Shown here one piece after another: positions 4,085 through 47,081 of a stretch of 64,000 bases of DNA. The translations under genes were made by a program, and so were the position numbers. This DNA is from Vairimorpha necatrix. Its lineage: Eukaryota. Every line of letters starts with the position of its first letter. The stretch's first letter is position 1. A model generated the notes under the pieces. The model did not search any database. It was not told the DNA's origin and saw only the letters and a list, made by a program, of their open reading frames with translations. Where the stretch lies: positions 124,001 through 188,000 of the forward strand of contig CP142731.1 of NCBI GenBank assembly GCA_036630325.1, in the 5' to 3' direction.

Positions 4085-5064
4085 TCATAGTGTATTATTT
4101 TCAAAGAACTTTTTAAGATAATATTCATTCTTTTCATTATTCTTTGGCAAAGTCGATTTAGAATGTAAAACATCTTTGATTTTTTTTGTTTCCAATTTAG
4201 TACTATCTGTAGCTTTATCTTTTTTAATATCACCTTCTGACTCTTCTGTTGAATAATCTAACGCCGGAAGATCCACATCTTGAATCAAATCTTGTGTTTC
4301 AACAGTTTTCGTGTTAATTGGAGTATACTTGTTTACAGTTATTGCCTTTTCTTGTATTAGTACGTGTGATTCTGCAGTAGTATATTCTGTTGAATTAATA
4401 TGAGGATTTGCAAACATATTTTCATTATATAATTGTATAATTCGCCACGGACAATCATAATCTATTTTAAGATCAACGAATTTCGAAACTACAAGTTTAA
4501 GATCTTCTATTTCGTTTAAATCTTTAAAAGAAGAGTAAAAACTCAAATCGAAAACTAAATCATAGCTATGATAAGCTAAATATGCAAAAAGATGACCAAT
4601 TGGTTTCAGCTTTCGTGATATATTTTTTTTCGATAAGAATTTTGTTATTAATTTTTTAAAGAGAAATCTTAAATCATACAAGGGATTTGCACTCGACATA
4701 TATAATCCTATACGTATTAATTTACTTACATCTTTATGCATTATAAGAGCATAGAATACAACATCAGATGCATTAAAAATGGCTTGCCAATTAACTTTGA
4801 ATAATGGAGTTTTTTCTGTTTAACTTGATAACTATCCGAACAATTAAATTTGCTGGTATCGATTTTATTAAATAAAACTAAATTATGAGCATCAAATTTT
4901 GTAATATTAGGATTATTTAGATTTCTAACTATAAAATCATCATCGTACACATTTATTTTATTTCTGTAAGAAGGTATATTCTCGGGATCCAAAATTTTTT
5001 GTATTACAAAATTAGAGTTGTTTTTTGAAGCTGCAATTGATAAAATAGAGATACATATTAACAT
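4085..5064 (-). pseudogene. Secreted CxW-family protein split by a 1-nt frameshift (ORFs 4741..5064 + 4085..4741)
   Basis: CCCCAA-ATG start and signal peptide MLICISILSIAAS. Adding one A to the A6 run at 4810-4815 joins the two ORFs (…QKKTPLFKVNWQAIFNASDVVFYALIMHKD…), matching the paralog's …INWSALFTASEIVFEALMANID…. Could be an assembly error rather than a true pseudogene. Confidence 0.75.
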
Positions 5065-8000: not shown

Positions 8001-8436
8001 ATGTCTTATTAAAGTTAAGAGTATTTGATCTAGATTTTAAATTACACTTTTGCTAAAAATACAATTTCTAATGTTTTCAAATTTATTGTTTCACTTTTTA
8101 TAATTATTTGATCACAAAAAGAAATTCATATCAAATAAAAATTAGTGAATCAATAAGTAAAATATGTTTTCAAATTAATAAATTTAAATCTAGTTCAAAA
8201 ATAGACAAATTAACTTAAAAAATAGTTCTTAGGGAGAATATTTGTAACTTACAGATACTAGATACATAAAATGAATGCTCAATTTAATTGTGAAACATTT
8301 TTTGTTTCTTTAAGATCATTATATGATATTTCTCGATGTATTCCCTACACAAAAACAATTATTTTTTAGACCACGTTTATTAAAAGAAATTTTTATTTTT
8401 CTCCTTTTAATAAAATTTTTTATTTTTTAACCCCTT

Positions 8437-12074: not shown

Positions 12075-12122
12075 TGTGATATATTTGTATAATTTCTATC
12101 CCCATTATGATAAATAAAGACA
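12075..12122 (+). mobile_element. Solo copy of the 49-bp LTR of Ty3/gypsy element 1
   Basis: TGTGATATATTTGTATAATTTCTATCCCCATTATGATAAATAAAGACA, identical to 28478-28526 except for one C missing from the C run; no PBS follows. Confidence 0.9.
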
Positions 12123-12470
12123 TTATTTAACAAATGCATATAAAATTTTGCGTTAACTAATATTATTTACCTTATAACTGTACAGCAATTTTAAAGATTT
12201 CTTTTGTGATAAAGTAGTACTTGGTGATTAAGTCATAGGGCAACCATATAAATTTTATACTTCGCATTTTTTATTACAATGTTGATTATAAAATAGCGGC
12301 CGTGCTCATTAACATAATAGATTTACTTTATGAATGTCTTCATACGGCAAACATTTCTTTCTTTGACTACAGACTTGCCATCACATAAATATATCTGCCA
12401 TGTGCTTGTTAAATTATATTTTTACAAGTCTTTATAAAAATGTTTAACCTTGTTTCTATTTACTATTTTA

Positions 12471-12508
12471 TGTGATATATCTGTATCATTTCTATCCCAT
12501 TATGATAA
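12471..12508 (+). mobile_element. Degenerate, 3'-truncated copy of the element-1 LTR
   Basis: TGTGATATATCTGTATCATTTCTATCCCATTATGATAA aligns to the 49-bp LTR with 2 substitutions and a shorter C run. Confidence 0.75.
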
Positions 12509-15500: not shown

Positions 15501-16203
15501 TTGTATAAAATTTTCAAAAATTAAATATACTTTTGTCGCTTGTATATATGCAAACATAATATTTTTTAGCCTATAACTTTGTAGAAAAAAATATTTATGA
15601 AAAATTAAGTTGGACCTATCTTGTTTTTATATCAAAATATAAATTAAGAAAGTTACAATCAAACAAGAGAAATAAAAATATTTAAAAAATAGGAATAGAA
15701 GTGTTTCAAGTTAGTTGATATTAACATAACTTTTTTCGATTTTTACATCCAAAATTTTTCCGCTTTTACTTTAAAAATCGGCTATATACGCAGCAATTAA
15801 ATATTTATATCCAACAAAGATTGATTAAAAACAAAAAAAAAGCATTATTTTCTTTTTTTAGAAAAAAATATAAAAATTATTTCATTTTTGCAGTGCTTTT
15901 TGATTAAAATGTCAAATCTTAATATGCCCATAAAATTATATAAAACTTTATCTTTGAATTAAAAAAGTAAAAGCTTAAACTCTTAAATTGTTATAATTTT
16001 GAGAAATAACAAAGAAATTCGAATTTTATTCATAAATTACTAAAAAGAATAATGAAATAAAATGATATGTAATATTATTTATACTTTAAATTGTCGTAAA
16101 TAATTAAGTCTCAATTTAGTTTGTCATGTTTTCATATACAAAATAAATTAGATTTTAACGGTATTTTTTATTTAAATAAAAAATAATTCAACCCTTTTTC
16201 AAT

Positions 16204-22408: not shown

Positions 22409-24660
22409 TATTAAGGGCGATGAAACCAATATTTATGCAAAAAGTAATAAAGACATACAAATTTATAATTAGTAAGATTATTAAATGAAATTACATTATA
22501 AAATGTCATTGTTTTTTTTTGTAATAAAACATTATACGAATTAACAATTATGAATATTTTGATAAATTAAGATACATCTTGGGCATTAAAAACAATTTAA
22601 TTACGCGCAAACAGATATGTGCGTTCTCAATTATACATAAATGATCAAATCGTGCAATGGAAAAAAAGAAATATATACACTAAAAAGAAAACCTATTATA
22701 GTATGTATAATAAAAGATTTTTATTAGTATTTATTTTTTCAATTATGTAAATGGTTTTATTACATTTAAGTCTATTTAAACTAAAATAAATTGTAGATCT
22801 AAAATATCATAGTATTCAGGTACCGACTATACATTTTTAAAATTACGTAGTTTTTAAACATTATATTGATTAAACATGTACATAAAAGTCCTCATGAGAT
22901 AAATTAAAAACTAAAAGATAATACCATAATCATTAACGGCAGGATCCTTCTTTTTATTATATTATATTATCACTTAAAATGTATAAACTATATTTTTCAA
23001 AGCCTTTCAATAATAAAATAAATTTCAATTAAATTTTATTAGAAATACAATACTTTTAAGTCTTAAAAAAAAGAAGAATTTTTATAGTCATATAAAAGTA
23101 ATAAATGTTTGTGTTTTTCATAAATATCCATGCAATTTAAAATGAACTACAAATGATCTAACAAAATAATTATCTTATAAATAACCTAATGTTTTCCGTG
23201 TTAAAAATGAAATTAAAAACTTTCGTTTATGGTATCTATCTCGTTTTTTAATTTTTTCAATCATCACTTTTGGTTGTAATAAGAAAAGCGAATGGAATTT
23301 TGCAAACAACAAAAATTATTTAATAAATCTTACTAAAATCTAACATTGTAAACAAATTCTTAAAAATCTTAAGTGAAAATTTTTAAATATTTTTAAATTT
23401 ATTTTGGACACTTATTATACAAAATCCTTGTAATTTTTGTGCAAGGGAAAATATATTTAAAAACAATTTTGACTATACTATGATACTGATTTTACAAAAA
23501 ATTAGAAATTTTAATATCTGGCATACGCATTTACAATTATCAAAGAAAAAGATTAAATCATATTTGTTACTGAAAAAACATTTTAAGTCGAAGAAAAATT
23601 CGAAGATTGAAAAATCATGAAAAGAAGGTTAAAAATAAAATAAATCAATTTTTATCTAAGATGATATTTTGTTTTAGCAGAAAATATACTTAAATACAAC
23701 ATCTGACCGTAAACACTGTCTTATCTCGTTGGGAACACTTAAATTAAAACATAAATTTAACTATGATTTAAACAGAAAAATTTAAAACAACTATTTTTTA
23801 AAATTTTGATCGGAATAACCACTTATTAACGTATTATGTGCCAACAAAAAAATTTATCTTGTTATAGTATTAAGAATTACAACTCTTTTTTTTATGCGCA
23901 AGAAGGTTCTTTTTGGGTATTTTTATACAAATAATTTATACCTTAAATTTGAATATTTGATGTTAGCTATTCTAAATATAAGGTATTAAATCTAATTGAA
24001 AATTACAAAGATTTCCCATGTCTCGAATTATAAAAAGTTATCCTAGCATATAATAATACCAAAGTTCGTTTGAAATTATATAGCAAGGAAAATATTGTAA
24101 ATCATAATCTAAAAAAGAAATTTATTGTGTCCTGTATAAACAGGACTAAGAAATTAATAATCGTTTTTATAATATTAAATAAATTTATCTTTTAATTTTG
24201 ATTGGTTCTCGTGATTCTAATGTTTGACACCCTTCAAAAACAGACTTCTTTTTATATTTTATTTTTATTCTAGCAACTTTTAAGGAATTAAGCTTAAGGT
24301 TTATGCCTTTGCTTTGAAAAAACTATACTAAAGCATTCTTGTGTTTGTCTGTTTATTGGCGCATGAAAATGTCATTGATGAATATTTGACAGATGATGTT
24401 TTTTACATCTATCCTTGTGATTTGGTCATTAACATTATAGATTGCTAATTAATTATAGATTTCCGAATTGTACTTTGATTTAATTTCTTATTTAATATTA
24501 ATTAAATAATGCATCACTACAAAAATTATAGCAAGGATCAATATGAACACAATTAATATAGATCTAATAGAATATTTTAAAATTTGTTTTTTTTTTGATT
24601 TAATTATTAGAAAATTTAATTTAATTTTTTTCGTTTAAGCTTTTTGTTTCTTTCCCCCTA

Positions 24661-25509: not shown

Positions 25510-27329
25510 AATTAAAATTATTTAGTTGCAAATATTTGTTTTGAGATATATAATATTTAAACTATAACCTTTAATATTTATAAATTTTCTAGATTTTTTT
25601 AGAATAATATAACACGAACATAAGCTTAAGAATAAATTATACAACTGTAAATTTTATATATTATGTTATTTACCTTATTAAAAATACAGTATATAGAAAT
25701 ATTATATACCGACTATATTTATTCCTTATTGATTTTGAAAAATTCACAATGTAAAATTTTTAGCTACAATTAAACTCTAAAATTACGTAATTAGAAATTA
25801 TCAAAATATTTAGTTTTAATTCAGCTTGTAAGGTCTTATTATAATACAATTTTTTATTTTCTTTATGTATGTTCAGAATTATTTCTATCAGATATAAAGA
25901 AAAAATTAAGGATACTCTATGCTAGTCTTTAATCAAAAACGATGTAATAATTAAATTACGAAATTAATATTTCTGAGTTTGATATTGCGCGAAAATAGCG
26001 TATTGCGTGGTCGTAATCTAAATGAGTCAACGATGCTAATTGTTAACATTAAAGTGAAATGTCATTAGCAACAAATGTTTTACTTAACGTATAGGCAACA
26101 AATAAAAATATATATTTATCAGTAAAAATTTTAATTTATTCACAGATTTCTAAACTTATTATGTTGATACTGCTATCTTAAAAGCGAAAAATTACTCATT
26201 ATTTCTTATCAATTGATAAATTGACATGCTTTTAATTCTATGAAAGTTTATATGGAAAATGATATTAAAAGATGAAGATTGAAAGGGTTTAGTAAAAAAA
26301 ATTAGATAAAATGATACAAAATTATAAAAATGTTATCCTTAACTACAAATAAAAAATTAAAAGTAAAAAACATTCAGTTTTGTAAAAATAAGATGAAAAA
26401 AATCAAATGATTTACAAAGATATATATAAGATTTGACAATATTTATAAGGGAATATGTATATTTCAATATTGTGTTCAAAGTAAAATATGTCGAAAACTT
26501 TTATTTTCTTTGCAGGTATGAGGCAGGGCGACTCCTTATACAAAGACTAGAGAAATTTGGTGTGATCTAGTTTCAACTGGTACTATGAAATTCTTTCAAA
26601 CTTAAAATCCCTCCATAAATTTGCAGATGCAGCGAGCTCCGTAGATCAATTGGACCACAGTTTTAATATATAATTTCCAATTATAACAATTTAACTATGA
26701 TAATCTTACAGTGAATATACACCATGCATAATTATCTCTCCCTGTGAATGAAAAATCGTACTAATTTAATGGTCCAAAATCATCTGTATCGCACACACGG
26801 CTTCATACACGGTCACATCACCTCTCCGGGATTTTTTGGTTGCGTTAGCCGCTAGTCTCCGACTAGTTTCGCTACCGTGTTAAAAATATTGTAAAAGGGT
26901 CCACGAGACCTTTTATTGCCCTCCTTGAAAGTCTGTAGGTCAACTCTAGGATCTTGATCTTAGTGCGATGCTAGGACTCTAACAGGCTGACCCTTCAGAT
27001 ACTTTTATGTTTCATTAAGTCACAACAAGGGTGATACTATTTTGTATTCTTAAGATGCGTTTCTATCAAGGTGCCAATCCCTTATGGTAGGCACACACAA
27101 GTTTCATTGAATCAACTTAATGATTATATTAGATATTTTCATAATCTGAAGTGTTTAAGCTGCATCATAGAAAGTAGAAACAATTTTGTTGCTCCTGGAT
27201 TCGGGACTAGCCATTGCTCAATGAAAGCATCGCCTTCTACTACGGGGCTAAGAGAACCTAAAAAAATAATCAAAGATAAATTTAATAAAATCTATTTGAA
27301 CTTAACATTTCCTCCTTCTTCCTTACATA

Positions 27330-28019
27330 ATTAGTAATTATTTTTAAAAGTAAATTCTTCAAGCCATGATCAAATATTCACACGCTTTACTCCGTGCTAT
27401 TTGGTCATTTCTAATTCTATATAAACCAAAAATTTATAATGTTAAAAGTATGTAATCCTGTTTCATTAGTACTTCCTATTGATTGATTTACAATAATGTG
27501 TTCGCGTTATAGATTTGCTTCATCGCCGGGATAACTAGATTTACCATCAGAAATAATTACTAATCCTGGTAAGACTCTATTTCCTATTATCCTTTTAGAG
27601 TATTTATCTTTCGATCTGCAACTTGTAATATACAAATTTTACTTCTATTTACAGCTTCTAACATCCTAATATCCATAAAGAATCTTTCTTCATCATCAGT
27701 TCCGAATGGAACTTTTTTGGTGTCTCTTTTATACAGTCCATCAAACTGAGTTTGAACTTTCGATCCTCAGATTTTGCAATCGATTTCCAATTTCTTTCTA
27801 ATTTTTCCCATCAATTTAAGCTTTATTTTTAAGAAAGTGTCATTTGACACACCCGTTAAATCATAATCAATTTATAATTGCTGTTACAAAGGACCAAGAA
27901 TCCAACAAAAAGATAAATTTCGAATGGTAACGTAATGCCGAGTAAAAAGCCGTATTTTGCTTGCATTTTCGTGTAGAACACCCATAAAGTAATCTTTACT
28001 ATATTTTTTTCTAATAATA
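27330..28019 (-). pseudogene. Decayed Merlin (ISXO2/IS1595-like) DDE transposase, central and C-terminal part
   Basis: Minus-strand translation with stops/frameshifts gives LLYGCSTRKCKQ, KI*GSKVQTQFDG (KIGG..V.xDE-like), RVLPGLVIISDGKSSY, EHIIVNQSIG, GLHTFNIINFW (HTNxIExxW-like) and HGVKRVNI*SWLEEFTFK, the ordered motifs of ISXO2/Merlin transposases. Confidence 0.8.
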
Positions 28020-28477
28020 CTAGCGTATGCTTTCCCGTTTTTGAAAACGGGATCTAAATGTTTAGTTTTTTTTATATGTCCAGTCACAGTGAATTTTGTT
28101 AAGTTTCCATTTTGGGATGATAGAATTTGATAGGATGAAGACATCATTTTCAAAAATACTTTTTAGTAACATATAAGGAGTAAAGTTGAGTTAAAAACAC
28201 TTATGAGTCTCATTGAGAAAATTTTAGGGACTTCTAAGCTCAATTTTTGACACTTACATTCACAATCTTTATTTGTCAGATCTTTTTACAATTTTTCGTA
28301 GAAGGGTCAAATAAATTCTAAAAAACGATTCTGACGATATTTTGGAACTGAGTTTAACAAAAATAATAATCAAAATTAAAAAGTATTAACTAATAACATA
28401 CACACTTAGAATAGTCAAATTATCGCTATAAATCTATATATGATATTTAAATAACATAGAAAGCCTAATATATATAG

Positions 28478-28526
28478 TGTGATATATTTGTATAATTTCT
28501 ATCCCCCATTATGATAAATAAAGACA
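28478..28526 (+). repeat. 5' LTR of element 1 (49 bp)
   Basis: Identical to 31648-31696; contains CCCCC, ATG (28511) and AATAAA. Confidence 0.95.
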
Positions 28527-31500
28527 TGGGGGCGATACCGAATCGTCAGTTTTCAAGTGTGGACTGTGGTCTAGAGGCCAAAAAGTTAATAAAGGAAGTT
28601 AGAAGAATAATGTATAGGTTGGAGATGGAGGAAGTAGAAATCAGTTTGTGGAAGCAGAGAATATTTATGGAAGGAAGTGAAGAAATAAAAAATTTCATGG
28701 TAGAAAGAATTAGTAAAGAGGACGAATATTATAAAATAATTGAGAAATTAGAGGAGGAAATATGTAGAGAAGAAAGAACTAAAAAAGAAGAAGAAAATAG
28801 GAGAGAACTTATGGAGGTCATAGCTGAGAATGTTAGAGAAACTGTGAGAAAAGAAATTCAAGAGAAAGATTTAGTTTTAAGGAGTACAGTACAAGAAATA
28901 AGAAATAATAGGAATTGTTTTAATTGTGGTAAATTTGGCCATATGGCTAGGAACTGCTATTTAGGAAGGAACAATAATCAGAAAAATAATAAAAAGTTTA
29001 ATAAGTACTTAAATTTAGACGAAAACCAAAGTTGTAGTAGCAGTAATGATAATAAAGAATATAAACCAAGTGGAAAGACAAAACGAGTTAAGTTAAAGGA
29101 ATGTAATAATAGTGATAGAAGACATAAAGAAAGAATATATGCGAGAAATAAAGAGACGAAAAGAAGATTACTGAAGAGGGAATTTACGTTGGAAGATCTC
29201 AAAGCGGAATATGAAGAAGTTTTTAAACAAGGAGATGAGGTTATAAGTTATTGTACATTAGAGAAGTGTAAGATAGATACTCCAGAGGGTAAGAAGATAG
29301 TCAGAAAGGGACAGACGATCCCACAGGCTTTGATCAAACAGACTGAGGAATATATTAATGATTTAGAAAATAGAAAAATTATAAGAAGATCGTCTTCGGA
29401 ATGGCGAAACCCAATAAGAGCGATACTTAAACCAAGTGGTGAAGTAAGAGTAGTTAGTAATTTTATAGGGTTGAATGATTTAGTCGAGAAAGACCCGTAT
29501 GAGCTAACGAATATGAGAGAAATAATAAGAGCTACGCAAGGGTCGATAATATTTACTGTTGTTGATTGCAAAGAAGCATTTTACCATTTTGAAATCGAAG
29601 AAAAAGATAAACATAAGACGGCGTTTGAATTTAATAAAAAAGTTTACGAATGAAATAGTATGGTGATGGGATACAAAAATTCCCCACAGATACTACAGAG
29701 AACGAAGGATATGATTTTTGAAGATTTGCGAGGAAATGGTGTTGAGGTATACATGGACGATATAGTAATACATGCCAACAATAAACGTAAACACGATGAA
29801 TTAGTAATATAGGTTATAGAAAGAATTAAGAGAAATAAAATGAAATTAAATATTGGGAAAATACAGTTTAGACAAGCGGAAGTAAAATTATTAGGTGTGA
29901 CGCTGAATGGAATAGACATGACGGCCGACGAAATAAAGAAAAATGAAGCTTTGGAGTATCCGGATCCAAAAACTTTGACGGAATTGAGGAGGTTTCTAGG
30001 ATTGACTGGGTGGTTCAGACCATTTATAAAAGATTATGCCGGGCTGACGTTGAAAATGACAGATAGTTTGAAGAAAAATGGCAATTCGTGGAAATTTACG
30101 GAAGAGATGAAAGAGGAATTTACTAAAATGAAAAATGTGTTAAGAAATATGGGAAGACTAAGATTACCGGACTATAATAAGGAGTTCATACTAAGAACAG
30201 ACGCTAGCAATTTGAGGTTGGGTGCGGTGTTACTTCAGAAGAATGAGAATGGGTAATGGGTTGCTATACAATGGGCATCTAAAAAGCTAACACCTACCGA
30301 AATAAGATATGGAATATCAGAAAAGGAAATGCTTGCGATATATTGGGGCATTGATAAATTTAAATACGAGTTAAGAGGTAGGAAATTCAAGATAAAAACG
30401 GATCACAAAGCACTGGTGGAGATAAGAAATAAACCGTTTTTTAATAATAACAGAATAAATCGCTTAATCGAGAAGATACAGGAATATGATTTTATCGTTG
30501 AATATAAAAAACCTGATGAGATGGTGGTAGCAGATGCGTTGAGTCGAATAAATATGGAAGAGGATATTAAAGAAATGAAAAATAAAGAGCGAACAATCAA
30601 GCAAACAGAAGGTAAATGGAAAGCACATGTTTCTTCCGAGAATGGAAAGCAATATTGGCAATTTGACTCAGGACGTAAAGTTGAAATACCACCTGAGAAT
30701 ATAAGGAGACAATTAATCCAAGAATATCATGAAAAAGTAGGCCACAGATGCATGACAAGTGTTTATTATGCAATGAGAGAAGAATACTATTGGCCAGGAG
30801 TAAAGAAAGAAATAAACGAGGTTATAAAACAGTGTCAGAAATGTCAGATATATAACAGGAAAAATATGGGTGGTTGTGAATTTGTAGATACATCGAGATA
30901 CTTAGAGAAGGTTGCATTAGATTTGATAGACTTTAGAAATGAGAAGAAATATGTTTTAGTTGCTATCGATTATTTTACACGTAGAGTATGGGGAGTAGTT
31001 ATAAATAACAAGTCAAGTAATAATGTTGTTGGATTTTTGAAAAGATTATGTGAGCAAGGGAAGAAACCAGAAGAAATTATTACAGATAACGGGAAAGAGT
31101 TTATTAACGTGGAATTTAGAAAATTTTGTAGAGATCTCGATATAATACACCGACAAGTAAGTATAGAAGCGCATAGAAGTAACGGAAGAGTAGAGTGTGT
31201 TATAGGAACTTTGAGAGAAAGTATTTTAAAGTCGGATGCGAAAACTTTTGAAGGTAAAGTATATAAAAGTATCGATGTATATAATCAGAGCTATCATACG
31301 GGAATAAAATGTACACCATTAGAAGCGACTGAAGATAAAACTGGAGACGTAATGCTTGAAAATAGCCCTATAGGGAAATATTGTAATAGGTTTGGAAAAG
31401 GAAAGATCGAAAAATTTAGCAAAGGTCAATTGGTAAGAATAGCTAAACGAGAAAATTTGGCAGGTGTTAATAAGTATGAAAAAGGAAGATTTTTGGATAC

Positions 31501-31624
31501 AGGAAAAATTGTTGAAAAGTGTGGAAAAGATTCTTATATTGTAAAACTTAGTAATGGTAGGCTTGTGAAGAAGAGACATTATGATCTGAAGGGTATGCTT
31601 GGGGTAGATGTGAAAATTAGATGA
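28511..31624 (+). pseudogene. Gag-Pol polyprotein of element 1: one reading frame with three in-frame stops
   Basis: ORFs 28511..29653, 29840..30256 and 30329..31624 share one frame; stops TGA 29651, TAG 29810, TAA 30254. Zinc knuckle CFNCGKFGHMARNC, RT YMDD (29750), RNase H DAS/EKE/TDH, integrase HHCC and D(LDLID)-D(TDNGKEF)-E(NGRVE). Confidence 0.93.
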
Positions 31625-31647
31625 GACTAACCGTCTTGAGGGGGGGA

Positions 31648-31696
31648 TGTGATATATTTGTATAATTTCTATCCCCCATTATGATAAATAAAGACA
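31648..31696 (+). repeat. 3' LTR of element 1 (49 bp)
   Basis: Directly after the PPT and followed by TSD TATAG. Confidence 0.95.
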
Positions 31697-34600
31697 TATA
31701 GTTTAAAAATTTTAAAACCACAAAAAATAGGGGTAAAAAATTAAATAAAATTCTTTTATATATATGACTAGCGTATGTTTTCCCGTTTTGAAAACGGGAT
31801 CTAAATGTTTAGTTTTATAATATGTCTTTCATCCTTAAATTTTGTAAAGTTTCCATTTTGGGATGATTTAATTTGACAGAGTTTAGACATGATTTTTAAA
31901 AATACTTTTTAGTGACATAGAAGAAGTAAAGTTGAGTTAAAAACACTTATGAGTCTCAATGAAATAATTTTATGGAATTCTAAGCTCAATTTTTGAAACT
32001 TATATTCAATTTTTTTTTGGTTATTGTTTTTGCAATTTTTCGTGGAAGGGTCAAATAAATTCTAAAAAACGATTCTGACAATATTTTGGAACTGAGTTTT
32101 ACAAAACAAAGAATTAAAATGGAAATGTATTTACATATAGTACACGCACATATGATAGTCAAAATCCTTCAATGAGTTTATATTTGATATTATAATAAGT
32201 TAATAAGACCAAAATATACAGTGTGGAAATTCCAAATTCACAAAAAAGAGGGGTAAAAAATTAAATAAAATTCTTTTATATATATGACTAGCGTATGCTT
32301 TCCCGTTTTGAAAACGGGATCTAAATGTTTTGTTTTATAATATGTCCCGCCTCGGTGAATTTTGGTGAGTTTCCATTTTGGGATGATTGAATTTGATAGG
32401 ATGAAATCATCTTTTTCAAAAATACTTTTTAATAGCATATTAGGAGTAAAGTTGAGTTAAAAACACTTTTGAGTCATAATTAAATAATTTCGGGAACTTC
32501 TAAGCTCAATTTTTGACACTTACATGTAAGATCTTCATTGGTTATATGTTTTTGCAATTTTTTTAGAAGGGTTAAATAAATTCTAAAAAACGATTCTGAC
32601 GATATTTTGGAACTGAGTTATACAAAAATAATAAATCTAATAAAAATGCATTAATATATATTATACGCACTTACAATTATCAAATTTAAGCACTGAGTTT
32701 AAATTTGATATTACAATGACACAATAAGCTATAATAAGAAGTTTAGAATTTTTAAAACCACAAAAAAGAGGGGTAAAAAATTAAATAAAATTCTTTTATA
32801 TATATGATGATGACTAGCGTATGCTTTCCCGTTTTGAAAACGGGATCTAAATGTTTTGTTTATGGTATGTATCTCGTTATATTTTTTTTTAAATTGCCAT
32901 ATTTGGTTTGAAAAGAAAGGGGAAATGCAATTTTTAACAACATTAAAATTATTTCCAATGCGAAACTTGAATATGGATTTCAAATCAAATTATTCTATAA
33001 AATCCAATTTGATAACTTTATTATGTTTATACGTTTAAAATTTGACACTTACATTCAACTTTTCTTTAGTTAATATTTTTGTCAATTTTTTCTAGAAGGG
33101 TTAAATAAATTCTAAAAAACGATTCTGACGATATTTTGGAACTGAGTTCTACAAAAATAATAATTAAAACAAAAAAGTATCAACTTATAACATACACACT
33201 TACGATAGTCAAAATCCTTCAATGAGTTTATATTTGATATTACAATGACGCAATAAGTTATAATAAGAAGTTTAAAGTTTACAAAATCATAAAAAAGAGG
33301 GGTAAAAAATTAGATAAAATTCTTTTATATATATGACTAGCGTATGCTTTCCCGTTTTGAAAACGGGATCTAAATGTTTAGTTTAATAATATGTATTTCC
33401 CCTTTTAATCTTGTTGAGTTTGGATTTGGGGATGAATGAATTTGAAAAGGAGGCAACATGATTATGAAAAATACTTTTTAGTAACATTAAGGAGTAAAGT
33501 TGAGCTAAAAACATTTAATAATTATAATGAGATAATTTCGTGAACTTCTAAACTCAATTTTTGACACTTTTATTCAACTTTTTTTTGGTACATGTTTTTG
33601 TGAATTTTTTCTAGAAGGGTTAAATAAATTCTAAAAAACGATTTTGACGATATTTTGGAACTGAGTTTTACAAAAATAATAATATGAATTAAAATGCATT
33701 AACATACAGTACACGGACCTGTGATATTCAAAATCCTCCTTTGAGTTTATATTTGATATTTAAATAAGTTAATAAGATTAAAATAAATAGTTTAGAAATT
33801 TTTAAACCACAAAAAAGAGGGGTAAAAAATTAAATAAAATTCTTTTATATATATGACTAGCGTATGCTTTCCCGTTTTGAAAACGGAATTTGAATGTTTG
33901 GTTTCATATTATGTCCCGCCTCGGTAAATTTTGGTAAGTTTCCATTTTGGGATGATTGAATTTGACAGGATGAAGACATCTTTTTCAAAAATACTTTTTA
34001 GTGACATAAAATAATTAATTTGAGTTCAAAACACTTATGAGTCTCATTGAAATAATTTTGGGAACTTCTAAGCTCAATTTTTGACACTTACATGTAAGAT
34101 CTTCATTGGTTATATGTTTTTGCAATTTTTCTAGAAGGGTTAAATAAATTCTAAAAAACGATTTTGACGTTATTTTGGAACTGAGTTTTACAAAAATAAT
34201 AGTTAGAATAAAAATGCATTAATATATAATATACGCACTCACAATTATCAAATTAAAACGTTAAAATTAAATTTGATACTATTTTAACGTAAAAGGATCA
34301 AAATGTATCGTTTAGAAATTTCATAATCACAAAAAAGAGGGGTAAAAAATTAAATAAAATTCTTTTATATATATGACTAGTGTATGCTTTCCCGTTTTGA
34401 AAACGGGAATTGTATGTTTTGTTTCATGATATGTTCCTTTTCGGTAAATTTTGTTAAGTTTCCATTTTAGGATAATGAATTTAAAAAAGGGAAAAAATGT
34501 TTTTTAAAAATAATTTTAACAACATATAAGAAGTAATGTTGAGTTAAAAACACTTAAAACCCATAATTATATAATTTTGAAAACTTCTAAAGCTCAATTT

Positions 34601-34898
34601 CAACACTTATTATTCAAATTTTTTGATTCTAATGTGTTTGGAATTTTTTCTAGAAGGGTTAAATAAATTCTAAAAAACGATTCTGACGATATTTTGGAAC
34701 TGAGTTTTACAAAAAACAATAATAAAAATAAAAAGTATTAACTAATAACATCCACACCTAGAATAGTAAAATTATCGCAATAAATCTATATATGATATTT
34801 AAATAACATAGAAAGCCTAATATATATAGTTTAGAAATTCCAAAGTCACAAAAAATAGGGGTAAAAAATTAAATAAAATTCTTTTATATATATGATGA

Positions 34899-35035
34899 TT
34901 ACAAGCTTTGCTATAACGTATCACAAGAACCACATGGTCAGTTAGATTAATGATTTTAGTCTCTATCATGTAGTCTTTACACGAAGCAAGACTTGAAAAC
35001 GAAAAATTTCTCAAATTCTAAAAAAAAATTGTCAT
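34899..35035 (-). pseudogene. N-terminal part of the Merlin transposase split off by the Helitron array
   Basis: CCCAA-ATG at 35035; …KDYMIETKIINLT… then PCGSCDT (CxxC) in a shifted frame, which pairs with the CSTRKC motif on the other side of the array as in Merlin N-terminal Cys motifs. Confidence 0.55.
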
Positions 35036-35583
35036 TTGGGACTTTTTTTTAAAAAAATAAAAATTATATATTTTTGCATTTCTCCGTTTTGGTGCCTCAT
35101 GTTTTCGGGGCAGAAAAACGGAGAAGTGTCGATAATTCTAAATGCCGCCCCTTCCAGTGACTGCAAAAATGTTTAAAATGGACATGCTTTTTTATTATTA
35201 TGTTATTCTATATACTGCGAAGGTAATTATCGAGGTGTTCTTTGGAAAACCTTGTAGAATATGTGTTGCCATTTCAATCTTTCAGGTATGCATTAGTGTT
35301 CTTTACATTAAAAAGCAAATAAATACTTTTTAATCTAGATAATTGTCGAATGTATCATATATCAGTTTCGGACTGTTGATTGGTACTACAAAACATATGA
35401 TAACATCCATAATGTGTTATTTTAGATCACGCATAGATATAACAAAATCATCTAAATACAAAATAATAAGAACGTTCCAAAGAACTAGCACGTAACAAAA
35501 ACGACGATTGCTGAAGTCAACTTTGCAAGTATAATTGAAAGAATGTCAAGACGGTCTTAAAATTAAAAATTGAGTTTTGGTAT

Positions 35584-35653
35584 TGTCGTATCCTTCTATA
35601 AATATTATATATTTTCACCCCCATGCAATTCGTAAATAAAGGAACATTCGACA
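35584..35653 (+). repeat. 5' LTR of element 2 (70 bp)
   Basis: Identical to 39060-39129; contains TATAAAT, CCCCC-ATG (35623) and AATAAA. Confidence 0.95.
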
Positions 35654-38600
35654 TGGCGACAGCGATAAAAACTGTTGGCTGCTTCAGTGGAAAGAAGGAA
35701 GAGGATATAAATACATGGTTGCGTGACACAACGTTCACGGCGAGGGTTATGGGACTGACCGAAGATCAGACCGCCAGACTTATCTGCCTGAGTCTACGGG
35801 GGCCAGCTCTCTCATGGATAGCAATGGCATTTGAACGGGTGTCAGAACTTGATCTGGCAGAGGTTACTAAGAGTCTAAAATTGAGATTTTACAGTTCACA
35901 GAAAACTCTGGCCACTCTAGACGAGTTTGTTAAACCGCAACAATTTGGCAACCTAGAGGCTTTCATAGACTTCTGCAGGAAAGGAAACTCACTTATAGAG
36001 CAACAAACAATGGAGTACAAATCAGTCAGCCTCATAGTAATCAAGAAGTCTCCTTCAGTCCTCAAATCAATTCTTTATGATTTTGCTAGACAATGCCAAG
36101 ATTGGAGTGAATTCCTGAGGCGCACAGAGGAAGTTTCTTGGATAGCATTCCCTATGAAAAGTAACACGACTAATACGGACGAGACACTAGATAACAGGAC
36201 TTTGAAGGTCGCACCATCGAAGAAGGGAAATATACCCTACACCATAGAAAACTACAAGATCAACAGCTGTTTCACTAACCCTTGCTACATAAACGTAGAA
36301 TTCAATCGTAAACGACATCGAGCATTAATTGATACCGGAGCTGATGTCTCCCTGATACCCGCAAGAGTCCTCGAAGGGACAAATATCAGATTTACCAGAT
36401 CTTCAACGATCATACGAGCAGCATCAGGGACACCATTGGAGATTACAGGAAGATGTCTAAATATCAATTTTAGGACGGAAAACACTTCAATTACTTTCAG
36501 CCCTTACGTCACAGAACGGACACCGGACTACATAATCTTAGGAGTTGACGCTATACGAACGAACCCCATATTACTGGAACAACTGATCAGAAAATTCGCC
36601 AATACAGTCAAGAAAGGCTCACTGATTAACAAAGTCAATTACATCTCAATCGAAGAGAAATACCATGACATGTTCAAAACTGAAATTTCAGAGCTTACAC
36701 TTTGTAACATGGGGAAACATCAAATCGAGACAACAGTAGCGAAGGCAATTTACCAGAAAAATGGAAAGATCCCTCTGCACTTTGAAGAGGAAATCACACA
36801 ACAGATCAAGAAGAACTTGCAGTTGGGCGTAATAAGAAATAGTAGGAGCCCCTGGAACAGTAGAGTTGTTCCGGTAACGAAACCTGATGGGTCGATCAGG
36901 CTCTGTATAGATTACAGAGAGCTCAACAAGATAACAGTCAAAGATAAATACCCCCTCCCACGAATTGATGAAATTCTCGACGATCTAGCTGACGCTACTA
37001 TCTTTTCGACATTAGATGCTACGTCGGGATATTATCAGATAGCCCTTGAAGAAGTAGACAAGGAGAAGACAGCATTCAGCTGGAGAGGAGGACATTATGA
37101 ATTTAACAGGATGCCGTTTGGGCTATGTAATGCCCCTGCTACTTTTCAGAGAACTATGGATAAGATTTTTGTGAAAGAAAACAGAAAATTCGTCATACCA
37201 TACTTGGATGACATTATTATCTATTCTAAAAATCACCAGGAACACCGTGAACACTTGGAAATCATATTGGGTAAGCTTAAGGCAGCAGGAATCGCACTTA
37301 ACAGGAAGAAGTGCCACTTCTTCAAAGAAGAAATTAAAATTCTAGGGAATATAGTAACAAACAAGACGATCAAACCGGACCCAGAGAAGGTCAAAGCCAT
37401 AAACGAGTATAAGGAGCCGACGAATATTGCTCAACTACGGTCGTTTCTTGGGCTCATAAATTACTGTAGGGAGTTCATCCGTAACTTATCAGCGATAGCA
37501 GCCCCTCTCTACGAACTGTTTAAAGGAGAGTCAAAGCGAAGTGTTAAGAGTATTTCTCTCAGCAAAAAGGAGAAACGGGCATTCGAAGATCTAAAGAGAC
37601 TTCTCACAGAAGAGACAATAAGATACAAGATTAATCTCAGGAAACCGTTTATACTGACTACGGATGCGTCAGAGCAGGGAATAGGCGCGATCCTCTCACA
37701 GATTGGAGATGATGGGAAGGAGCACTTCGTAAGTGCATTCAGCAAAAGTTTAGAGAAAGCCCATAAGAACTACTCTACAACAGACAAAGAACTCTTGGCC
37801 GTTGTAAAAGGCATCGAGAACTATAGACACTACCTCCTGGGTAGAGAGTTCATATTGAAGACGGACCACAAAGCGCTGACTTATCTATGGGAAGCTAAGA
37901 ACCCTACCAGTAGATTGCTGAGGTGGGCAATGAAGTTGCAGGAGTATGCATTTCAATCAACCTACATAAAAGGAGAGGTTAATGGAGCAGACGGGTTAAG
38001 CAGACAAAACCCGACAGAGAAAGATATAAATATCATCGAAGCTACAGGACCAAGCGATGAAGACAGACAGAAGATCTTAGAATCCTACCATCTAGACGTT
38101 GGACATGCTAGCGCTAGTACGATGAGCTTCATGATTTCACAGAGGTACAAATGGGCAGGAATGCATAAGGACATCAAGGAACACGTAGAAAAGTGTAAAA
38201 CGTGCTTGAAATCGGGATACCCATTACGAAACACAAAAAACAAAGTTATACGATCAGAGAGGCCGAACCAAATATGGGTGATAGATCTCATAGGACGCAT
38301 ATGCGACACTTCGGGTCAAAACAGCTTCATATTCATTGCTATTGACCACTACTCTAAATGGGTCGAGACGGCTGTTATTAACTATAAAACAGGGTCGAAA
38401 ATAATGGGATTAATCCAGCAATTGATTATCGAGAAACACGGCATTCCAGAAAGAATCTTGACTGACAACGGGCTAGAATTTATAAATTCTGACATCAAAG
38501 ACCTGGCCGAAAAGAATGGTATTGACTGGCAATACAGTTCACCAGAACATCACGAAACTGTAGGCGCAGTAGAAAGAGCGAATCAGACGTTAATGAAGAT

Positions 38601-39048
38601 ACTAAATAAAATTACAGATTTCGGAAGGGTAAGCTGGAAGAACAAGCTTCCAGAAGCCACGAGATGCCTCAACCTGTCTTATAATCGGAGCATAGGAACA
38701 TCGCCGTTCATGTTAAGGGAGAATAAATTGCCGATGCTGTCTGTAGACAAAGCGCTAGACAAGGAAGAAGTGACATTCTCAGCGGAGGAAACGAAGAGTA
38801 AGCGCGATGAAAACTTCGAAAAGTACAATAAAGCAATCGTGAAAGGGAAAGTAGAGGTGGTGAAAAAGCTAAACGTGGGCGATAAAGTTTTAATATATCG
38901 TGAGACCAAAAGCGGGAAGTTCAAGTGCAATTGGGAAGATGGATACGTGATCACAGAAATAATTTTACCCGATGCCTATGTGGTAAAAAAGAATGGAAAA
39001 GTATACAGGCTTAACAAAACACGAGTTAAAGCAGATACTTCAATTTAG
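35623..39048 (+). CDS. Gag-protease-RT-RNaseH-integrase polyprotein (1141 aa, uninterrupted)
   Basis: Protease LIDTGADVS; RT LCIDYRELN, MPFGLCNAPATFQR, YLDD; RNase H TDAS/KELLAV/TDHKAL; integrase HHCC, IDLIG, TDNGLEF, VERAN. Confidence 0.98.
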   Translation: MQFVNKGTFDMATAIKTVGCFSGKKEEDINTWLRDTTFTARVMGLTEDQTARLICLSLRGPALSWIAMAFERVSELDLAEVTKSLKLRFYSSQKTLATLDEFVKPQQFGNLEAFIDFCRKGNSLIEQQTMEYKSVSLIVIKKSPSVLKSILYDFARQCQDWSEFLRRTEEVSWIAFPMKSNTTNTDETLDNRTLKVAPSKKGNIPYTIENYKINSCFTNPCYINVEFNRKRHRALIDTGADVSLIPARVLEGTNIRFTRSSTIIRAASGTPLEITGRCLNINFRTENTSITFSPYVTERTPDYIILGVDAIRTNPILLEQLIRKFANTVKKGSLINKVNYISIEEKYHDMFKTEISELTLCNMGKHQIETTVAKAIYQKNGKIPLHFEEEITQQIKKNLQLGVIRNSRSPWNSRVVPVTKPDGSIRLCIDYRELNKITVKDKYPLPRIDEILDDLADATIFSTLDATSGYYQIALEEVDKEKTAFSWRGGHYEFNRMPFGLCNAPATFQRTMDKIFVKENRKFVIPYLDDIIIYSKNHQEHREHLEIILGKLKAAGIALNRKKCHFFKEEIKILGNIVTNKTIKPDPEKVKAINEYKEPTNIAQLRSFLGLINYCREFIRNLSAIAAPLYELFKGESKRSVKSISLSKKEKRAFEDLKRLLTEETIRYKINLRKPFILTTDASEQGIGAILSQIGDDGKEHFVSAFSKSLEKAHKNYSTTDKELLAVVKGIENYRHYLLGREFILKTDHKALTYLWEAKNPTSRLLRWAMKLQEYAFQSTYIKGEVNGADGLSRQNPTEKDINIIEATGPSDEDRQKILESYHLDVGHASASTMSFMISQRYKWAGMHKDIKEHVEKCKTCLKSGYPLRNTKNKVIRSERPNQIWVIDLIGRICDTSGQNSFIFIAIDHYSKWVETAVINYKTGSKIMGLIQQLIIEKHGIPERILTDNGLEFINSDIKDLAEKNGIDWQYSSPEHHETVGAVERANQTLMKILNKITDFGRVSWKNKLPEATRCLNLSYNRSIGTSPFMLRENKLPMLSVDKALDKEEVTFSAEETKSKRDENFEKYNKAIVKGKVEVVKKLNVGDKVLIYRETKSGKFKCNWEDGYVITEIILPDAYVVKKNGKVYRLNKTRVKADTSI

Positions 39049-39059
39049 GGGGGGAGAGG

Positions 39060-39129
39060 TGTCGTATCCTTCTATAAATATTATATATTTTCACCCCCAT
39101 GCAATTCGTAAATAAAGGAACATTCGACA
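39060..39129 (+). repeat. 3' LTR of element 2 (70 bp)
   Basis: Directly after the PPT and followed by TSD GGTAT. Confidence 0.95.
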
Positions 39130-43265: not shown

Positions 43266-43763
43266 CTAGTGCATGCTTTCATATAGGAAAACTCGGATTT
43301 GAGATTTTTTTTAATAATATATCTCTTTTTTTTCTAATTTTAATTTTAGGTAGAAATAAGAAAAACAGAAATTTGATCTTTGAAAACAACACAAATTAGT
43401 TTATAAGTTTGTCGCAAATAGTTTCAATATAAATACATCAATAAAATATATAGTGAAAACTTCAATTCGTTTTAAATTAAATTTTGAAACTGTTTATACA
43501 AAATTTTTGATGATTGAAAGTCTAAGCGATTTTATGAATATGTGTTAACAAAAATTTTCGTTCGATAAAGATGATATTTGAAGCTAAATTTACAAAAACT
43601 AATAATTTAAATAAAGTGTACGCGCTTAAAAAAGTCAAATTAAAGTATTAATTCTTCATTCGATATTATCTATACATAATAAGCAATAAACATTTTGTTT
43701 AGAAATTACAAACATGCAAAAGGTGGGGTAAAAAATTATATTAAATTCTTTGCTTACATGTGA
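43266..43763 (-). mobile_element. Degenerate monomeric copy of the Helitron-like unit
   Basis: Plus strand begins A|CTAGTGCATGCTTTC…GAAAACTCGGAT and ends GTTTAGAAATT…GGGGTAAAAAATTATATTAAATTCTTT…TGA|T; about 500 bp, collinear with the array unit. Confidence 0.7.
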
Positions 43764-44071
43764 TCATGATGAAAAAGTTCTATAAACGACCTAGAGGTTT
43801 TTTAATTGTATATAAAAGACAAAAGTTTGATATATATATATATATACTTCATTAATCGGGGGCTGAAAAGTCATGAAAGGATGTCTTAAGAACCCCTACG
43901 AGCAGAACCAGGGAAGGAAAAGCCACCGCGAAAAGTAAAGAACAATGAAAGCGATGAAACTCAATAAAATGAATTTGAGCCTTGAATCAAAAAGTCATTG
44001 TTACTTACTATAAATATATATGGAACATTAAAATGATTTTTCAAATTTCAATTATTTATTATTATGACTTA

Positions 44072-44953
44072 TTACGTATAAATAAGCTTTTCCATAATAT
44101 CAATAATTAACAAACATTCTTTGCACAACTTTTCAAGATTATTATAAAAAATGTAAAGACCATCATAGATTTCACTAAACGATCTTTTTATTCTATTTTT
44201 ATCTGTTTCATTAAAATTAATAAGATATGCATATTCGAAAAATATTTTTAATGTCTTAAATCTATCGACTATCTGAAATTCATTCATAAATACGTTCATT
44301 CTAAGTGGTAGCGTGCCATAAAAATGCATTATTGCATAACTTTTCGATTTATAATTAAAATATGAACCAGCAGCATATATTTTAAAAAATTCGAAAAATA
44401 AATCAAAAAAAATCAATTGGTCTTCAATATCTTCTGTATATTCATCTTGAACAATAATTTCTGCAGCCATCTTGATTGTGTTCATATTTTCGAGAAATTT
44501 AATGTAAACCTCGTCGAACTTGCGTCGTATTGATTGTTTTGTTTTTTTATAAGTATTTTTTTCATTTGGCTTCATATTTTTTGCAAAATATATTTTTCTT
44601 GCCATATTAGAATCTTCTGTGTTCCACATATTAATAAGATCATTTAATTTTATTTTCAATATTTTATAATCTAAAATGTTTTGTAGGTCGTTTACATTCA
44701 AAATTATTACTTTTTCTTTTTTGTTAATATACCGTAAATTGAAATTATTATTATAATCAGAATTAAAGAATACAGAATCATAATTTTCAATTTTTTCAAA
44801 GTGATTTATACGCTCATACAAACCTTCACTCATCATGTCAAATTTTCGTTTTCTTGTATTATCTGATTTATAGATATATTTTGGGTATAATTCGAGGTGT
44901 TGATGTTCCGTTTCGATGTCAGAACTGATAACAAAAAACATGTATTGTAGCAT
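44072..44953 (-). CDS. Hypothetical protein with short hydrophobic N-terminus and basic NLS-like motif
   Basis: 293 aa; CCCATAG-ATG; MLQYMFFVISS; NTRKRKFD. Confidence 0.8.
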   Translation of the reverse strand: MLQYMFFVISSDIETEHQHLELYPKYIYKSDNTRKRKFDMMSEGLYERINHFEKIENYDSVFFNSDYNNNFNLRYINKKEKVIILNVNDLQNILDYKILKIKLNDLINMWNTEDSNMARKIYFAKNMKPNEKNTYKKTKQSIRRKFDEVYIKFLENMNTIKMAAEIIVQDEYTEDIEDQLIFFDLFFEFFKIYAAGSYFNYKSKSYAIMHFYGTLPLRMNVFMNEFQIVDRFKTLKIFFEYAYLINFNETDKNRIKRSFSEIYDGLYIFYNNLEKLCKECLLIIDIMEKLIYT

Positions 44954-44974
44954 CTATGGGCTATTGTAAAAAAA

Positions 44975-45350
44975 TATTATTTATAAAAATTAGATTAAGA
45001 TTATTGTCAGAATCGTTTAAAATTAAGCTAACATTCTAATAGTAAATTGCAGAGACTTTCAATCTTAGAAAATTTCGCAAAATAAGTGTCAAAAATTGAA
45101 TTTGTAAACATAAAAATTAGCTCAATAAATTTTCTAGAAAAATAATTCAAATTCTTTATTTAAATTTTTTGCTTAGAATTTTTCAAACCCATGGTCACTG
45201 CCTTTCTCGTTCCCTCAATTATAAAAATTTAAGAAAAATTTAGAAGAAAAATATTTTAAAACATAATGTAGATTTAAACATCTTGCGTAAAACATACGCT
45301 AGTTATAAAAATAAAAAAAATTATTTGATTTTTACCCTTTTTCGTGATAG
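44975..45350 (+). mobile_element. Degenerate Helitron-like copy in the opposite orientation, spanning a head-to-tail junction
   Basis: ATTGTCAGAATCGTTT (~45003), TAAGTGTCAAAAATTGA (~45083) and CATACGCTAGTTATAAAAATAAAAAAAATTATTTGATTTTTACCC (~45293-45337) are reverse complements of array motifs at matching spacing. Confidence 0.7.
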
Positions 45351-47081
45351 TGTGATATCAAATCAATAATAGTAATGAAGACATGTTTTACAATTAAACT
45401 AGTTGAAAAACATATTTTATTTAATTATGTAAGCAACAATGTATATTTTGCTTATTTTAAATGTTTGTTTATCTAGGATAAAAGTTTATACAACATCTGT
45501 AAATTAAAATTTTACAATATCGTTATATCCTCTCTTTTAGTTGTTATATTTTTAAATCTGCAAAACTTTTACTCGTAGACTAACATTTACTTAATTTCAA
45601 CAGAAACAAGATTTCAAAATGTTTCTGATATAATTGTATTTAGATACAGGTCTTGTTCTGTTTTGTATATATTCAATTATTAAGACTTTTAATTTATTTT
45701 AAAATGATGATAATCTTTATTGTAGTCTATCACCATGGCTTTTTACATACAACAAGAAATCTTTCAAGCAACAACGATTTGACATGTGATAAAGAGCTGC
45801 ATATTATTTAAAAGAATACTTCTCTCGTAATATTTACGAATTTATTCGATAAGAATTCTAGACATTGATGTTTTAAGTCTAATTTTTGAAGCCAAAATGA
45901 TTCAAAGCATTTACAGCATCCAATATCAAGGAGTTTTTCAAAAACCAACAGACAATAAACTGTGTTTTCCCATAAATGCTAATTTAAATTGTGTATAGTT
46001 TGATTTAACGCATCTTACATACTCTGTCGTGAATAAAGAGTAGCGTTAGTTTAAATTTTTCTTTTGTGCAAAAGTTGTAAAGGACCTACCAGCCGTATTT
46101 AATATATAACAAAACTCATTATTTGCAGATTTTTTTATTTAACGAATTATGCGGTTTCAAGCTGAAGTTTATAAATAATCTAATTCTAATGAAATTGATA
46201 CACTACCTATATTGTATAATTTTTTAAGAAAATCAATGATAAATCGATATATTTTCAGTAATTATAGTATCCATGGAATCAATAAATTATTTTTATGATG
46301 TGTTAAATTACCTATCTTATAAAATCAATTAAACAATGTGTCCGTCGTCTATACAACATATTGTTTATTACACGAGTAAATGTTCTGTTTTTAAAAAAAG
46401 GCCATTTTTACGTAAATTTGCATAAACCAAAAGTGTATATCTTTATGTTTTAATATCTTATATCAGACACGTATAGAATATGTAGTCGAAAATTTCGTAA
46501 TTAAGTAACGTACAATAGTATTACAGATTAGAATGATTCTCTTTGCTTAATTATAGATTATTTTTGTAGTCTCAATCTTCTTTTATTAAATATTTTGTTA
46601 TCATTATTTATATATGTATTTATCATCTTTAATTTTTGATTGCTTTTACCAATAATTAATAAAAATAAACTAAAAATACAAATATTTTCGTCATTAATAA
46701 TTTTGTGTAAATGTATTAGCATGACAATTTTTGATTTACAAGTAAATTGCAGTTTAAAAAAAATGCGCCATTTTTAATCAGTTACAATTATATTTGCCTT
46801 AAACATCAAATCAGTGCAAAATACTGACAAACTTGTTTTTTTTATTTTTCATTTAATGGATAAGAAATCTATAATTTAGCATTTTATTAGAAAATACTGC
46901 ATTTGATATTAAGACATATTATCGTATATATTATTATAAACTTGGCTATAAATCAGAACATAATAAAAAATTATATTACTTGTTTATTTTTTAACAATAA
47001 AAATATTTAAAATAACTGAATTGTTTTTTTTGTACTTACGAAATAAAGAATTCTCACATAAATTTTTATTTTCCAAAAAAA

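Follow-up and report, generated by a model that had tools for sequence, protein, structure and literature searches.

A Probable Stack of Seven Non-autonomous Helitrons, Joined Head to Tail, in the Microsporidian Vairimorpha necatrix

How do seven copies of one transposon-like unit, nearly constant in length and in their ends and divergent in between, come to stand head to tail? The genome of Vairimorpha necatrix, a microsporidian parasite of the Nosema/Vairimorpha clade, raises this question on contig CP142731.1 (assembly GCA_036630325.1), where we analyzed positions 124,001 to 188,000 of the forward strand, a stretch of 64,000 nucleotides that we call the window and number from its first letter. 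An earlier note on this DNA had described a Helitron-like array of seven units of 520–526 bp and had offered three explanations: serial insertion of family members at their own ends, a functional chromosomal array, and a repeat-spacer RNA cassette. Our analysis indicates that the region is probably a stack of seven non-autonomous canonical (Helitron1-type) rolling-circle transposons, all members of one abundant family. Among the three explanations, serial insertion at the 5' junction of a resident copy is the simplest account, the best fit, and the most likely origin of the stack.

Results

Seven junction motifs, at 28020, 31768, 32288, 32814, 33337, 33857, and 34377, delimit the units, which we call U1 to U7 (Table 1). 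The motifs lie 520–529 bp apart, except for a distance of 3,748 bp after the first, which is due to a retrotransposon inserted in U1. The 31-mer previously given as the junction motif occurs six times with at most one mismatch (expected number 0, from 100 shuffles), and the seventh junction motif, at 28020, carries one additional base in its hairpin loop. With the nested element removed from U1, the units measure 524, 520, 526, 523, 520, 520, and 522 bp from U1 to U7, so that the stack holds 3,655 bp of Helitron DNA plus one nested long terminal repeat (LTR) retrotransposon. The differences in length are largely due to additional TCA triplets, which add 6 nt at the 5' end of U3 and 3 nt at that of U7, and through the triplet in U7 the right boundary of the stack is ambiguous (34895 or 34898, with A preceding TC at both). 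The seven motifs and the measured lengths thus bear out the number and size range of the units in the earlier note, with two amendments: the first unit is not contiguous but is split by the 3,219-bp retrotransposon, which had been overlooked, and the Helitron reading, the hallmarks of which stand, applies to the minus strand. Tandem Repeats Finder did not report the array because the longest period it considers is 500.

Table 1. Positions of the stack, its units and blocks, and related copies in the window
Feature	Position	Strand	Remarks
Whole stack	28020–34898	-	Seven head-to-tail units and nested LTR element
U1, 3' part	28020–28477	-	458 bp; hairpin and terminal CTAG
Mini Ty3/gypsy LTR retrotransposon	28478–31696	+	3,219 bp; nested in U1
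U1, 5' part	31702–31767	-	66 bp; includes conserved 5' block
U2	31768–32287	-	520 bp
U3	32288–32813	-	526 bp; two extra TCA triplets at 5' end
U4	32814–33336	-	523 bp; most divergent unit
U5	33337–33856	-	520 bp; reference unit for block coordinates
3' block in U5	33337–33383	-	~47 nt; 17-nt palindrome (33351–33367), 10 nt, CTAG
Central block in U5	33601–33676	-	~75 nt; second A/T-rich + AACCC promoter-like motif
5' block in U5	33807–33856	-	~50 nt; TC terminus, TA-rich run, AAATTT-like + CCC-like motif
U6	33857–34376	-	520 bp
U7	34377–34898	-	522 bp (519 bp if 5' end is 34895)
S1, decayed solo copy	23182–23664	-	nhmmer E 8.8e-18
S2, decayed solo copy	43266–43769	-	504 bp; flanks A/TC...CTAG/T; eroded hairpin
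S3, decayed copy	7692–8144	+	nhmmer E 6.5e-12
S4, decayed copy, 5'-truncated	44977–45302	+	Ends ...CATACGCTAG at 45302
Decayed 5' block of a further copy	45303–45379	+	Directly after CTAG of S4; nhmmer E 1.9 (weak alone), read by eye

Read on the minus strand, all seven units start with TC (TCA), each opening with TCATATATATAAAAG, and all seven end in CTAG, as do two decayed copies elsewhere in the window (S2 and S4). The internal joints are exactly CTAG/TC (the slash marks the joint), with no extra bases, and on the same strand the outer flanks of the stack are A/TC at its right end and CTAG/T at its left end. No flanking direct repeat that would represent a target-site duplication is visible in the sequence around the stack. 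In every unit, a 17-nt palindrome with an 8-bp stem is followed by 10 nt and then by CTAG. Folded as single-stranded DNA, this 3' hairpin has an energy of −9.3 kcal/mol (z −5.3; 0 of 200 shuffles as good), and 7/7 units preserve its stem pairs, with a single G-U change. At the 5' end there is no significant fold (−1.4 kcal/mol, z −0.17). Nor are there terminal inverted repeats: when the first 40 nt of U5 are compared with the reverse complement of its last 40 nt, the score is 5, which 457 of 500 shuffles (mean 5.7) equal or exceed. The unit termini, the 3' hairpin, the A/T flanks, and the lack of terminal inverted repeats are defining features of canonical Helitrons, the definition of which, as quoted in PMC4038834, includes a 16–20-nt palindrome close to the 3' end. 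The hallmarks recognized previously, namely a TC start, a hairpin 10 nt before CTAG, and an A/T target, hold for the termini of 7/7 units and for both flanks of the stack. The related Helentrons (Helitron2) have asymmetric terminal inverted repeats, hairpins at both ends, and a T/T target; the units do not fit that class, in view of the absence of terminal inverted repeats, the absence of a 5' fold, and the A/T flanks.

When the units are aligned segment by segment, their divergence proves to be block-wise. Mean pairwise identity is 97% in a 5' block of ~50 nt, 92% in a central block of ~75 nt, and 93% in a 3' block of ~47 nt, versus 70% and 69% in the two spacers that separate them, V1 and V2, respectively. 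The spacers are nearly fixed in length, at 129–130 nt for V1 in 7/7 units and 217–221 nt for V2. Even V2 of U4, which is ~50% identical to V2 of the other units and falls to 20–36% in sub-windows, is unchanged in length, and it can nevertheless be aligned to the others (z 5.9–7.1, 0 of 300 shuffles). Gap events per 100 substitutions number 2–11 among U1, U2, U3, U5, and U6, versus 16–28 in the solo relics, and 9–26 for pairs that include U4 or U7; such counts vary with the aligner, and net length is the more robust measure.

The earlier note had described nearly invariant junction and central blocks amid divergent segments, and had named uniform divergence along the unit as the result that would speak against its reading; at 92–97% identity for the blocks and ~70% for the spacers, its description is accurate. 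Its statement that there are almost no indels stands as far as the nearly fixed spacer lengths are concerned, but a depletion of indels is suggestive only, with up to 26 gaps per 100 substitutions when U4 or U7 is one of the pair. Lengths as constant as those of the spacers suggest that transposing lineages require a set spacing, and the constraint on spacing and motifs proposed earlier remains a reasonable idea. The terminal blocks are what a trans-acting RepHel protein would need, whereas the central block has no known counterpart; it has no significant secondary structure (z −1.0 and −1.55). Two other sources of the pattern were considered and ruled out. Internal duplication is contradicted by the comparison of the 5' block with the rest of the unit (score 22 versus a shuffle mean of 24), and a hypermutation or diversity-generating mechanism by the symmetric substitution spectrum (233 transitions versus 256 transversions). 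The substitutions favor neither strand and have no A-specific or C-to-T bias.

Over their whole length, pairs of units are 68–86% identical, and the units are mosaic in their relationships: U1 and U7 are closest to each other in V1 (88%), U3 and U6 in V2 (89%). Adjacent units have a mean identity of 0.761 versus 0.774 for non-adjacent ones, and of the 5,040 orders in which the units could stand, 3,908 yield a mean for neighbors that equals or exceeds the observed one. These three properties, the range of identities, neighbors that are no closer than other pairs, and discordant spacers, argue against a recent concatemer or a local duplication.

A profile built from the seven units (nhmmer) finds four further diverged loci in the window (S1 to S4). 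The 5' end of S1, like that of S2, is preceded by A (A/TC). In these relics, the conserved blocks are eroded like the rest of the element, and lengths have drifted: S2 is 504 bp long, and S1 is ~12 bp shorter and S3 ~25 bp longer than the matched span of the model. Because the blocks in the stack are still 92–97% identical and the spacers ~70%, while the old solo copies have decayed in their blocks too, the differences between units would predate insertion. A concatemer would be expected to decay evenly, blocks included, which favors repeated insertion of different, fairly young members. S4, together with the decayed 5' block that follows it, appears to be the relic of a second head-to-tail junction. 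The start of an open reading frame (ORF) at 44072–44953 (minus strand; 293 amino acids (aa), no Pfam family) abuts the truncated end of S4 (44954–45002), and part of its upstream region is therefore Helitron-derived.

The abundance of the family was gauged from contigs of two public runs, X1 (share 0.37) and X2 (share 0.23), mapped on 26500–36500; runs X3 and X4 contributed one small partial contig each. In X1, the depth, which is a summed contig word depth and not a copy number, is 24 and 33 in unique flank bins, 7,165–28,994 in bins wholly inside Helitron units (31844–34849), and up to 40,135 in array bins that hold parts of the nested LTR element. Positions in the variable spacers (28423, 32661, 33036, and 33539–33552) have depths of 1,307–15,840 from 3–14 contigs. 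X2 has the same pattern at lower depth, and in the contigs of the two runs the variable spacers have ~30–800 times the depth of the unique flanks. Moreover, the variable spacers of each unit are high-copy at an identity of at least 90% in both runs. Chimeric contigs join the spacers of different units in register, with jumps of 529, 1,048, 1,065, and 2,081 bp and few unmatched letters between, and other combinations of the same spacer variants therefore exist elsewhere. Exact scans of metagenome contigs gave 0 matches to the 3' terminus and 0 to a degenerate central-block core. Copies differ in how many TCA triplets they carry at the Helitron 5' end, and a 3-nt deletion variant near 32804 is present in one contig each of X1 and X2.

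The array has no coding potential, its longest open stretch being 38–86 codons, with 70–116 stops per frame. A structured or known non-coding RNA gene array was also rejected: covariation across units is not supported (RNAalifold term +0.41, with the terminal hairpin alone supported), and an Rfam scan of the array gave 0 matches at the gathering score. Its sub-threshold matches (E up to 1) were two to snoR09 across junctions, at 30.3 and 26.2 bits versus a gathering score of 50. An AA/TT periodicity of 10–10.5 bp does not rise above that in six control stretches; the peak at period 8.0 stems from the 520-bp unit, of which it is a harmonic.

In the Helitron sense, the 5' block (…TTTAATTTTTTACCCCTCT…) and the central block (…GAATTTATTTAACCCTTCT…) each contain an A/T-rich run followed by ACCCC or AACCC, similar to the AAATTT-like and CCC-like signal described just upstream of microsporidian start codons in PMC2803860. 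CCC lies within 15 nt 5' of ATG in 11 of the 12 long ORFs of the window, usually behind a T-rich run. This motif, the published microsporidian core signal, helps to place start codons in the window. In the 5' block the motif is followed, within a few bases, by ATG in U4, S1, and S2 and by GTG in the other six array units. Because U4, S1, and S2 have ATG where the others have GTG, the 5' block may be the leftover promoter and start region of an autonomous ancestor.

Discussion

If the stack arose by serial insertion, different members of the family would have inserted one by one at the A/TC junction of a resident copy. Each new copy integrating there would leave an exact CTAG/TC joint without extra bases, so that U1, at the 3' side, would be the oldest unit and U7, at the 5' side, the youngest; the mini LTR retrotransposon would have entered U1 later. 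Occasional read-through of a 3' end could have moved at least two units as one block. The cis signals of each unit (TC and the left block at the 5' end, the hairpin and CTAG at the 3' end) would be used by a RepHel protein supplied in trans, and the A/TC junction, presumably the normal nick site of the transposase, would for that reason be a preferred target. This mobilization in trans is our inference, as are the insertion order and the function of the blocks. What recommends serial insertion over the other options of the earlier note is that neighbors are not closer to each other, that the units are mosaic, that their spacers are high-copy, and that relics are dispersed. The argument made there that a fresh concatemer would consist of identical units is sound.

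Several observations weigh against this account. No Rep or helicase domain is found in 33 ORFs of the window (Pfam scans of 12 and 21 ORFs). The internal joints are G/T and cannot separate insertion at a 5' junction from non-canonical insertion at a 3' end. U2 and U5 (83%) and U3 and U6 (86%) are mutual best matches, each pair three units apart, a pattern that an old duplication of two units, or a transposition of several units at once, could have left. No contig joins 28019 to 34899, as an empty site would, among the joints listed, and polymorphism in unit number or insertion was not seen in the run contigs; mobility and insertion order therefore remain inferred. The depths, again, are summed word depths and not copy numbers, and X1 may be the source sample of the assembly. 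Finally, a purely parasitic model leaves unexplained both the constancy of the spacers (129–130 and 217–221 nt) across ~30% substitution and the conservation of an internal block.

Tandem Helitron arrays are usually explained in another way, as concatemers, in the accounts given in PMC5876387, PMC12001565, and PMC11934779. Several units would then have been delivered together, by rolling-circle replication or by 3' read-through in an already tandem donor. Mutation, unequal crossing-over, and gene conversion would since have made them different, except in the blocks, which conversion or selection would have kept similar. Such an origin accounts for the exact CTAG/TC joints and for the U2–U5 and U3–U6 matches three units apart, and the in-register chimeras in the run contigs show that variants do recombine. 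It is harder to reconcile with units that differ by 14–32% (and with V2 of U4, at ~50%), with neighbors that are no closer than non-neighbors, and with the discordant relationships of V1 and V2. Moreover, the high-copy state of each unit's spacers at an identity of at least 90% in X1 and X2 is unexpected under divergence in situ, and the solo relics show that neutral decay erodes the blocks too. Thus, we consider a concatemer or multi-unit origin unlikely, though it deserves to be kept in mind.

The strikingly constant unit and spacer lengths would also suit a satellite that derives from Helitrons and serves the chromosome in a centromere-, origin-, or boundary-like way, its period and blocks being kept by selection on chromatin or protein binding. 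The array does lie inside a nest of transposons (~26.8–39.1 kb) to which two LTR elements and a further high-copy repeat belong, and Helitron-derived arrays at subtelomeres or centromeres of other organisms are described in PMC11934779. However, a satellite or centromeric array would be long, with near-identical monomers, at a fixed chromosomal position, whereas here there are only seven units, 68–86% identical and interrupted by an LTR element; the same family occurs solo, with Helitron ends and A/T flanks; the AA/TT periodicity does not exceed that of the controls; and ordinary genes lie within 10 kb on either side. A functional chromosomal array, as proposed earlier, has gained no support from these results, and we regard it as very improbable. 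The repeat-spacer RNA cassette has fared no better and seems the least probable of all: the 5' and central blocks would act as core promoters firing into the spacers to make short variable RNAs, for example silencing substrates. Its appeal lies in the A/T-rich run and ACCCC or AACCC of both blocks, which resemble the start signal in PMC2803860, and in the CCC signal 5' of 11 of the 12 long ORFs. Yet the array has no ORF (70–116 stops per frame), no covariation beyond the terminal hairpin (+0.41), and no Rfam family at the gathering score; its spacers are not unique; and the motif in the 5' block may be the remnant of an ancestral promoter and start, given the ATG in U4, S1, and S2.

To return to serial insertion, a more specific version of it is possible but doubtful: that the family homes to its own left end, building polar arrays that are oldest at the 3' side, and that transposition or persistence needs a fixed three-block layout. 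In this version, the transposase carrying a copy would resolve by preference into the A/TC junction of a resident element, its usual nick site. The required layout would be the left end, 129–130 nt, the internal block of ~75 nt, 217–221 nt, and the right end, and the internal block could be a priming site, a second-strand origin, or a promoter. If true, this would be a spacing rule not described for Helitrons.

Stacking itself is already known. Helitrons are listed among microsporidian transposons in Table 2 of PMC5012567 and in PMC12558613, and head-to-tail junctions or tandem arrays of Helitrons are reported from bat, plants, Drosophila, frogs, cnidarians, and fungi. For two unlike Helitrons of maize, joined as in our stack by an exact CTAG/TC joint, the 5'-junction insertion model was set out by Du et al. 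2008 (PMC2267711). The maize pair, as described there, consists of two large gene-carrying elements, whereas here seven small gene-less members of one family share conserved blocks and a fixed length. Tandem arrays in bat and plants are ascribed to rolling-circle concatemers in work cited in PMC5876387, and Xenopus laevis has 43 tandem Helitron arrays of 2–7 repeats, with monomers of 121–1,996 nt (PMC12001565). These too are head-to-tail Helitron copies, in similar numbers of 2–7 repeats per array, but they have been treated as repeats of one element or as internal minisatellites, in contrast to the mosaic units from different subfamilies here.

A fungal-lineage case is that of Metarhizium acridum, in which Chellapan et al. 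2016 (PMC5148889) report three Helitrons in tandem; they also report a FoHeli4 inserted 2 bp upstream of the 5' end of another, and consider insertion at a resident 5' end or rolling-circle replication as the cause, the same two explanations that we weigh. In their description, the elements are of autonomous size and non-canonical, without a modular, fixed-length non-autonomous family. Helitron-derived tandem repeats at chromosome ends in Hydractinia (PMC11934779) and Helentron-borne satellite-like repeats in oyster (PMC7492417) illustrate, as does our locus, rolling-circle elements as a source of tandem DNA; they are described as long arrays of sub-element repeats, often subtelomeric, whereas here a short array consists of whole elements with both termini. 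For the Lep1 Helitrons reported from Nosema bombycis, 200–450 bp long and shared with Lepidoptera (PMC4038834), we saw no link to the present family, with no Lep1 sequence at hand for comparison. Among the published stacks compared, in a limited literature search, this one is the longest and the most clearly heterogeneous.

Few traces in genomes tell how Helitrons integrate, and head-to-tail copies are among them. With seven members that clearly differ, the present stack is a neater experiment of nature than the pairs and triplets in print: it speaks against one rolling-circle concatemer and for insertion, more than once, at the 5' junction of a resident copy. From the family one can also see what a minimal Helitron keeps under selection, namely two termini, one internal block, and their spacing, which are concrete cis elements. 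In practical terms, an abundant 520-bp repeat of this kind may be called a satellite by standard tools or be missed altogether. Moreover, mini LTR elements of this genome insert into such stacks.

Other Features of the Window

The element nested in U1 was found through a 50-nt repeat at 28478 and 31648. Its 49-bp LTRs (28478–28526 and 31648–31696) are identical and run from TG to CA, and they are flanked by a 5-bp target duplication, TATAG (28473–28477 and 31697–31701). The ORF starts at 28511, inside the 5' LTR, and encodes a CCHC knuckle, reverse transcriptase, RNase H, and integrase (Pfam); Pfam found no protease in it. It contains three in-frame stops (29651 TGA, 29810 TAG, and 30254 TAA) and no frameshift. 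A second LTR retrotransposon lies 0.7 kb to the right of the stack (35584–39129, plus strand), with identical 70-bp LTRs and a GGTAT target duplication. Its ORF of 1,141 aa is intact, with protease, reverse transcriptase, RNase H, and integrase, and the start codon again lies inside the 5' LTR, right after CCCCC. To the left of the stack, a GC-richer stretch at ~26834–27167 has a summed depth in X1 of 4,576, versus 24 in a nearby unique bin, and is probably another high-copy repeat; it has no Pfam, tRNA, or Rfam match.

Outside the transposon nest, the window has a GC content of 22–28%. Its long intron-free ORFs include those for a HECT ligase, a choline-transporter-like protein, an XPG-like nuclease, a Rho GTPase, and a Myb protein. 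The Rho GTPase has its closest named matches in Vairimorpha necatrix (80% identity) and Nosema granulosis (62%), in agreement with a host of the Nosema/Vairimorpha clade; a search with the HECT protein gave no close named relative. An ORF of 787 aa at 47082–49445 (minus strand) has no Pfam family at E 0.01. Within another ORF, at 57122–58048 (minus strand; 308 aa, no Pfam family), a 63-bp tandem repeat occupies 57735–57891, in 2.5 copies with 91% matches.

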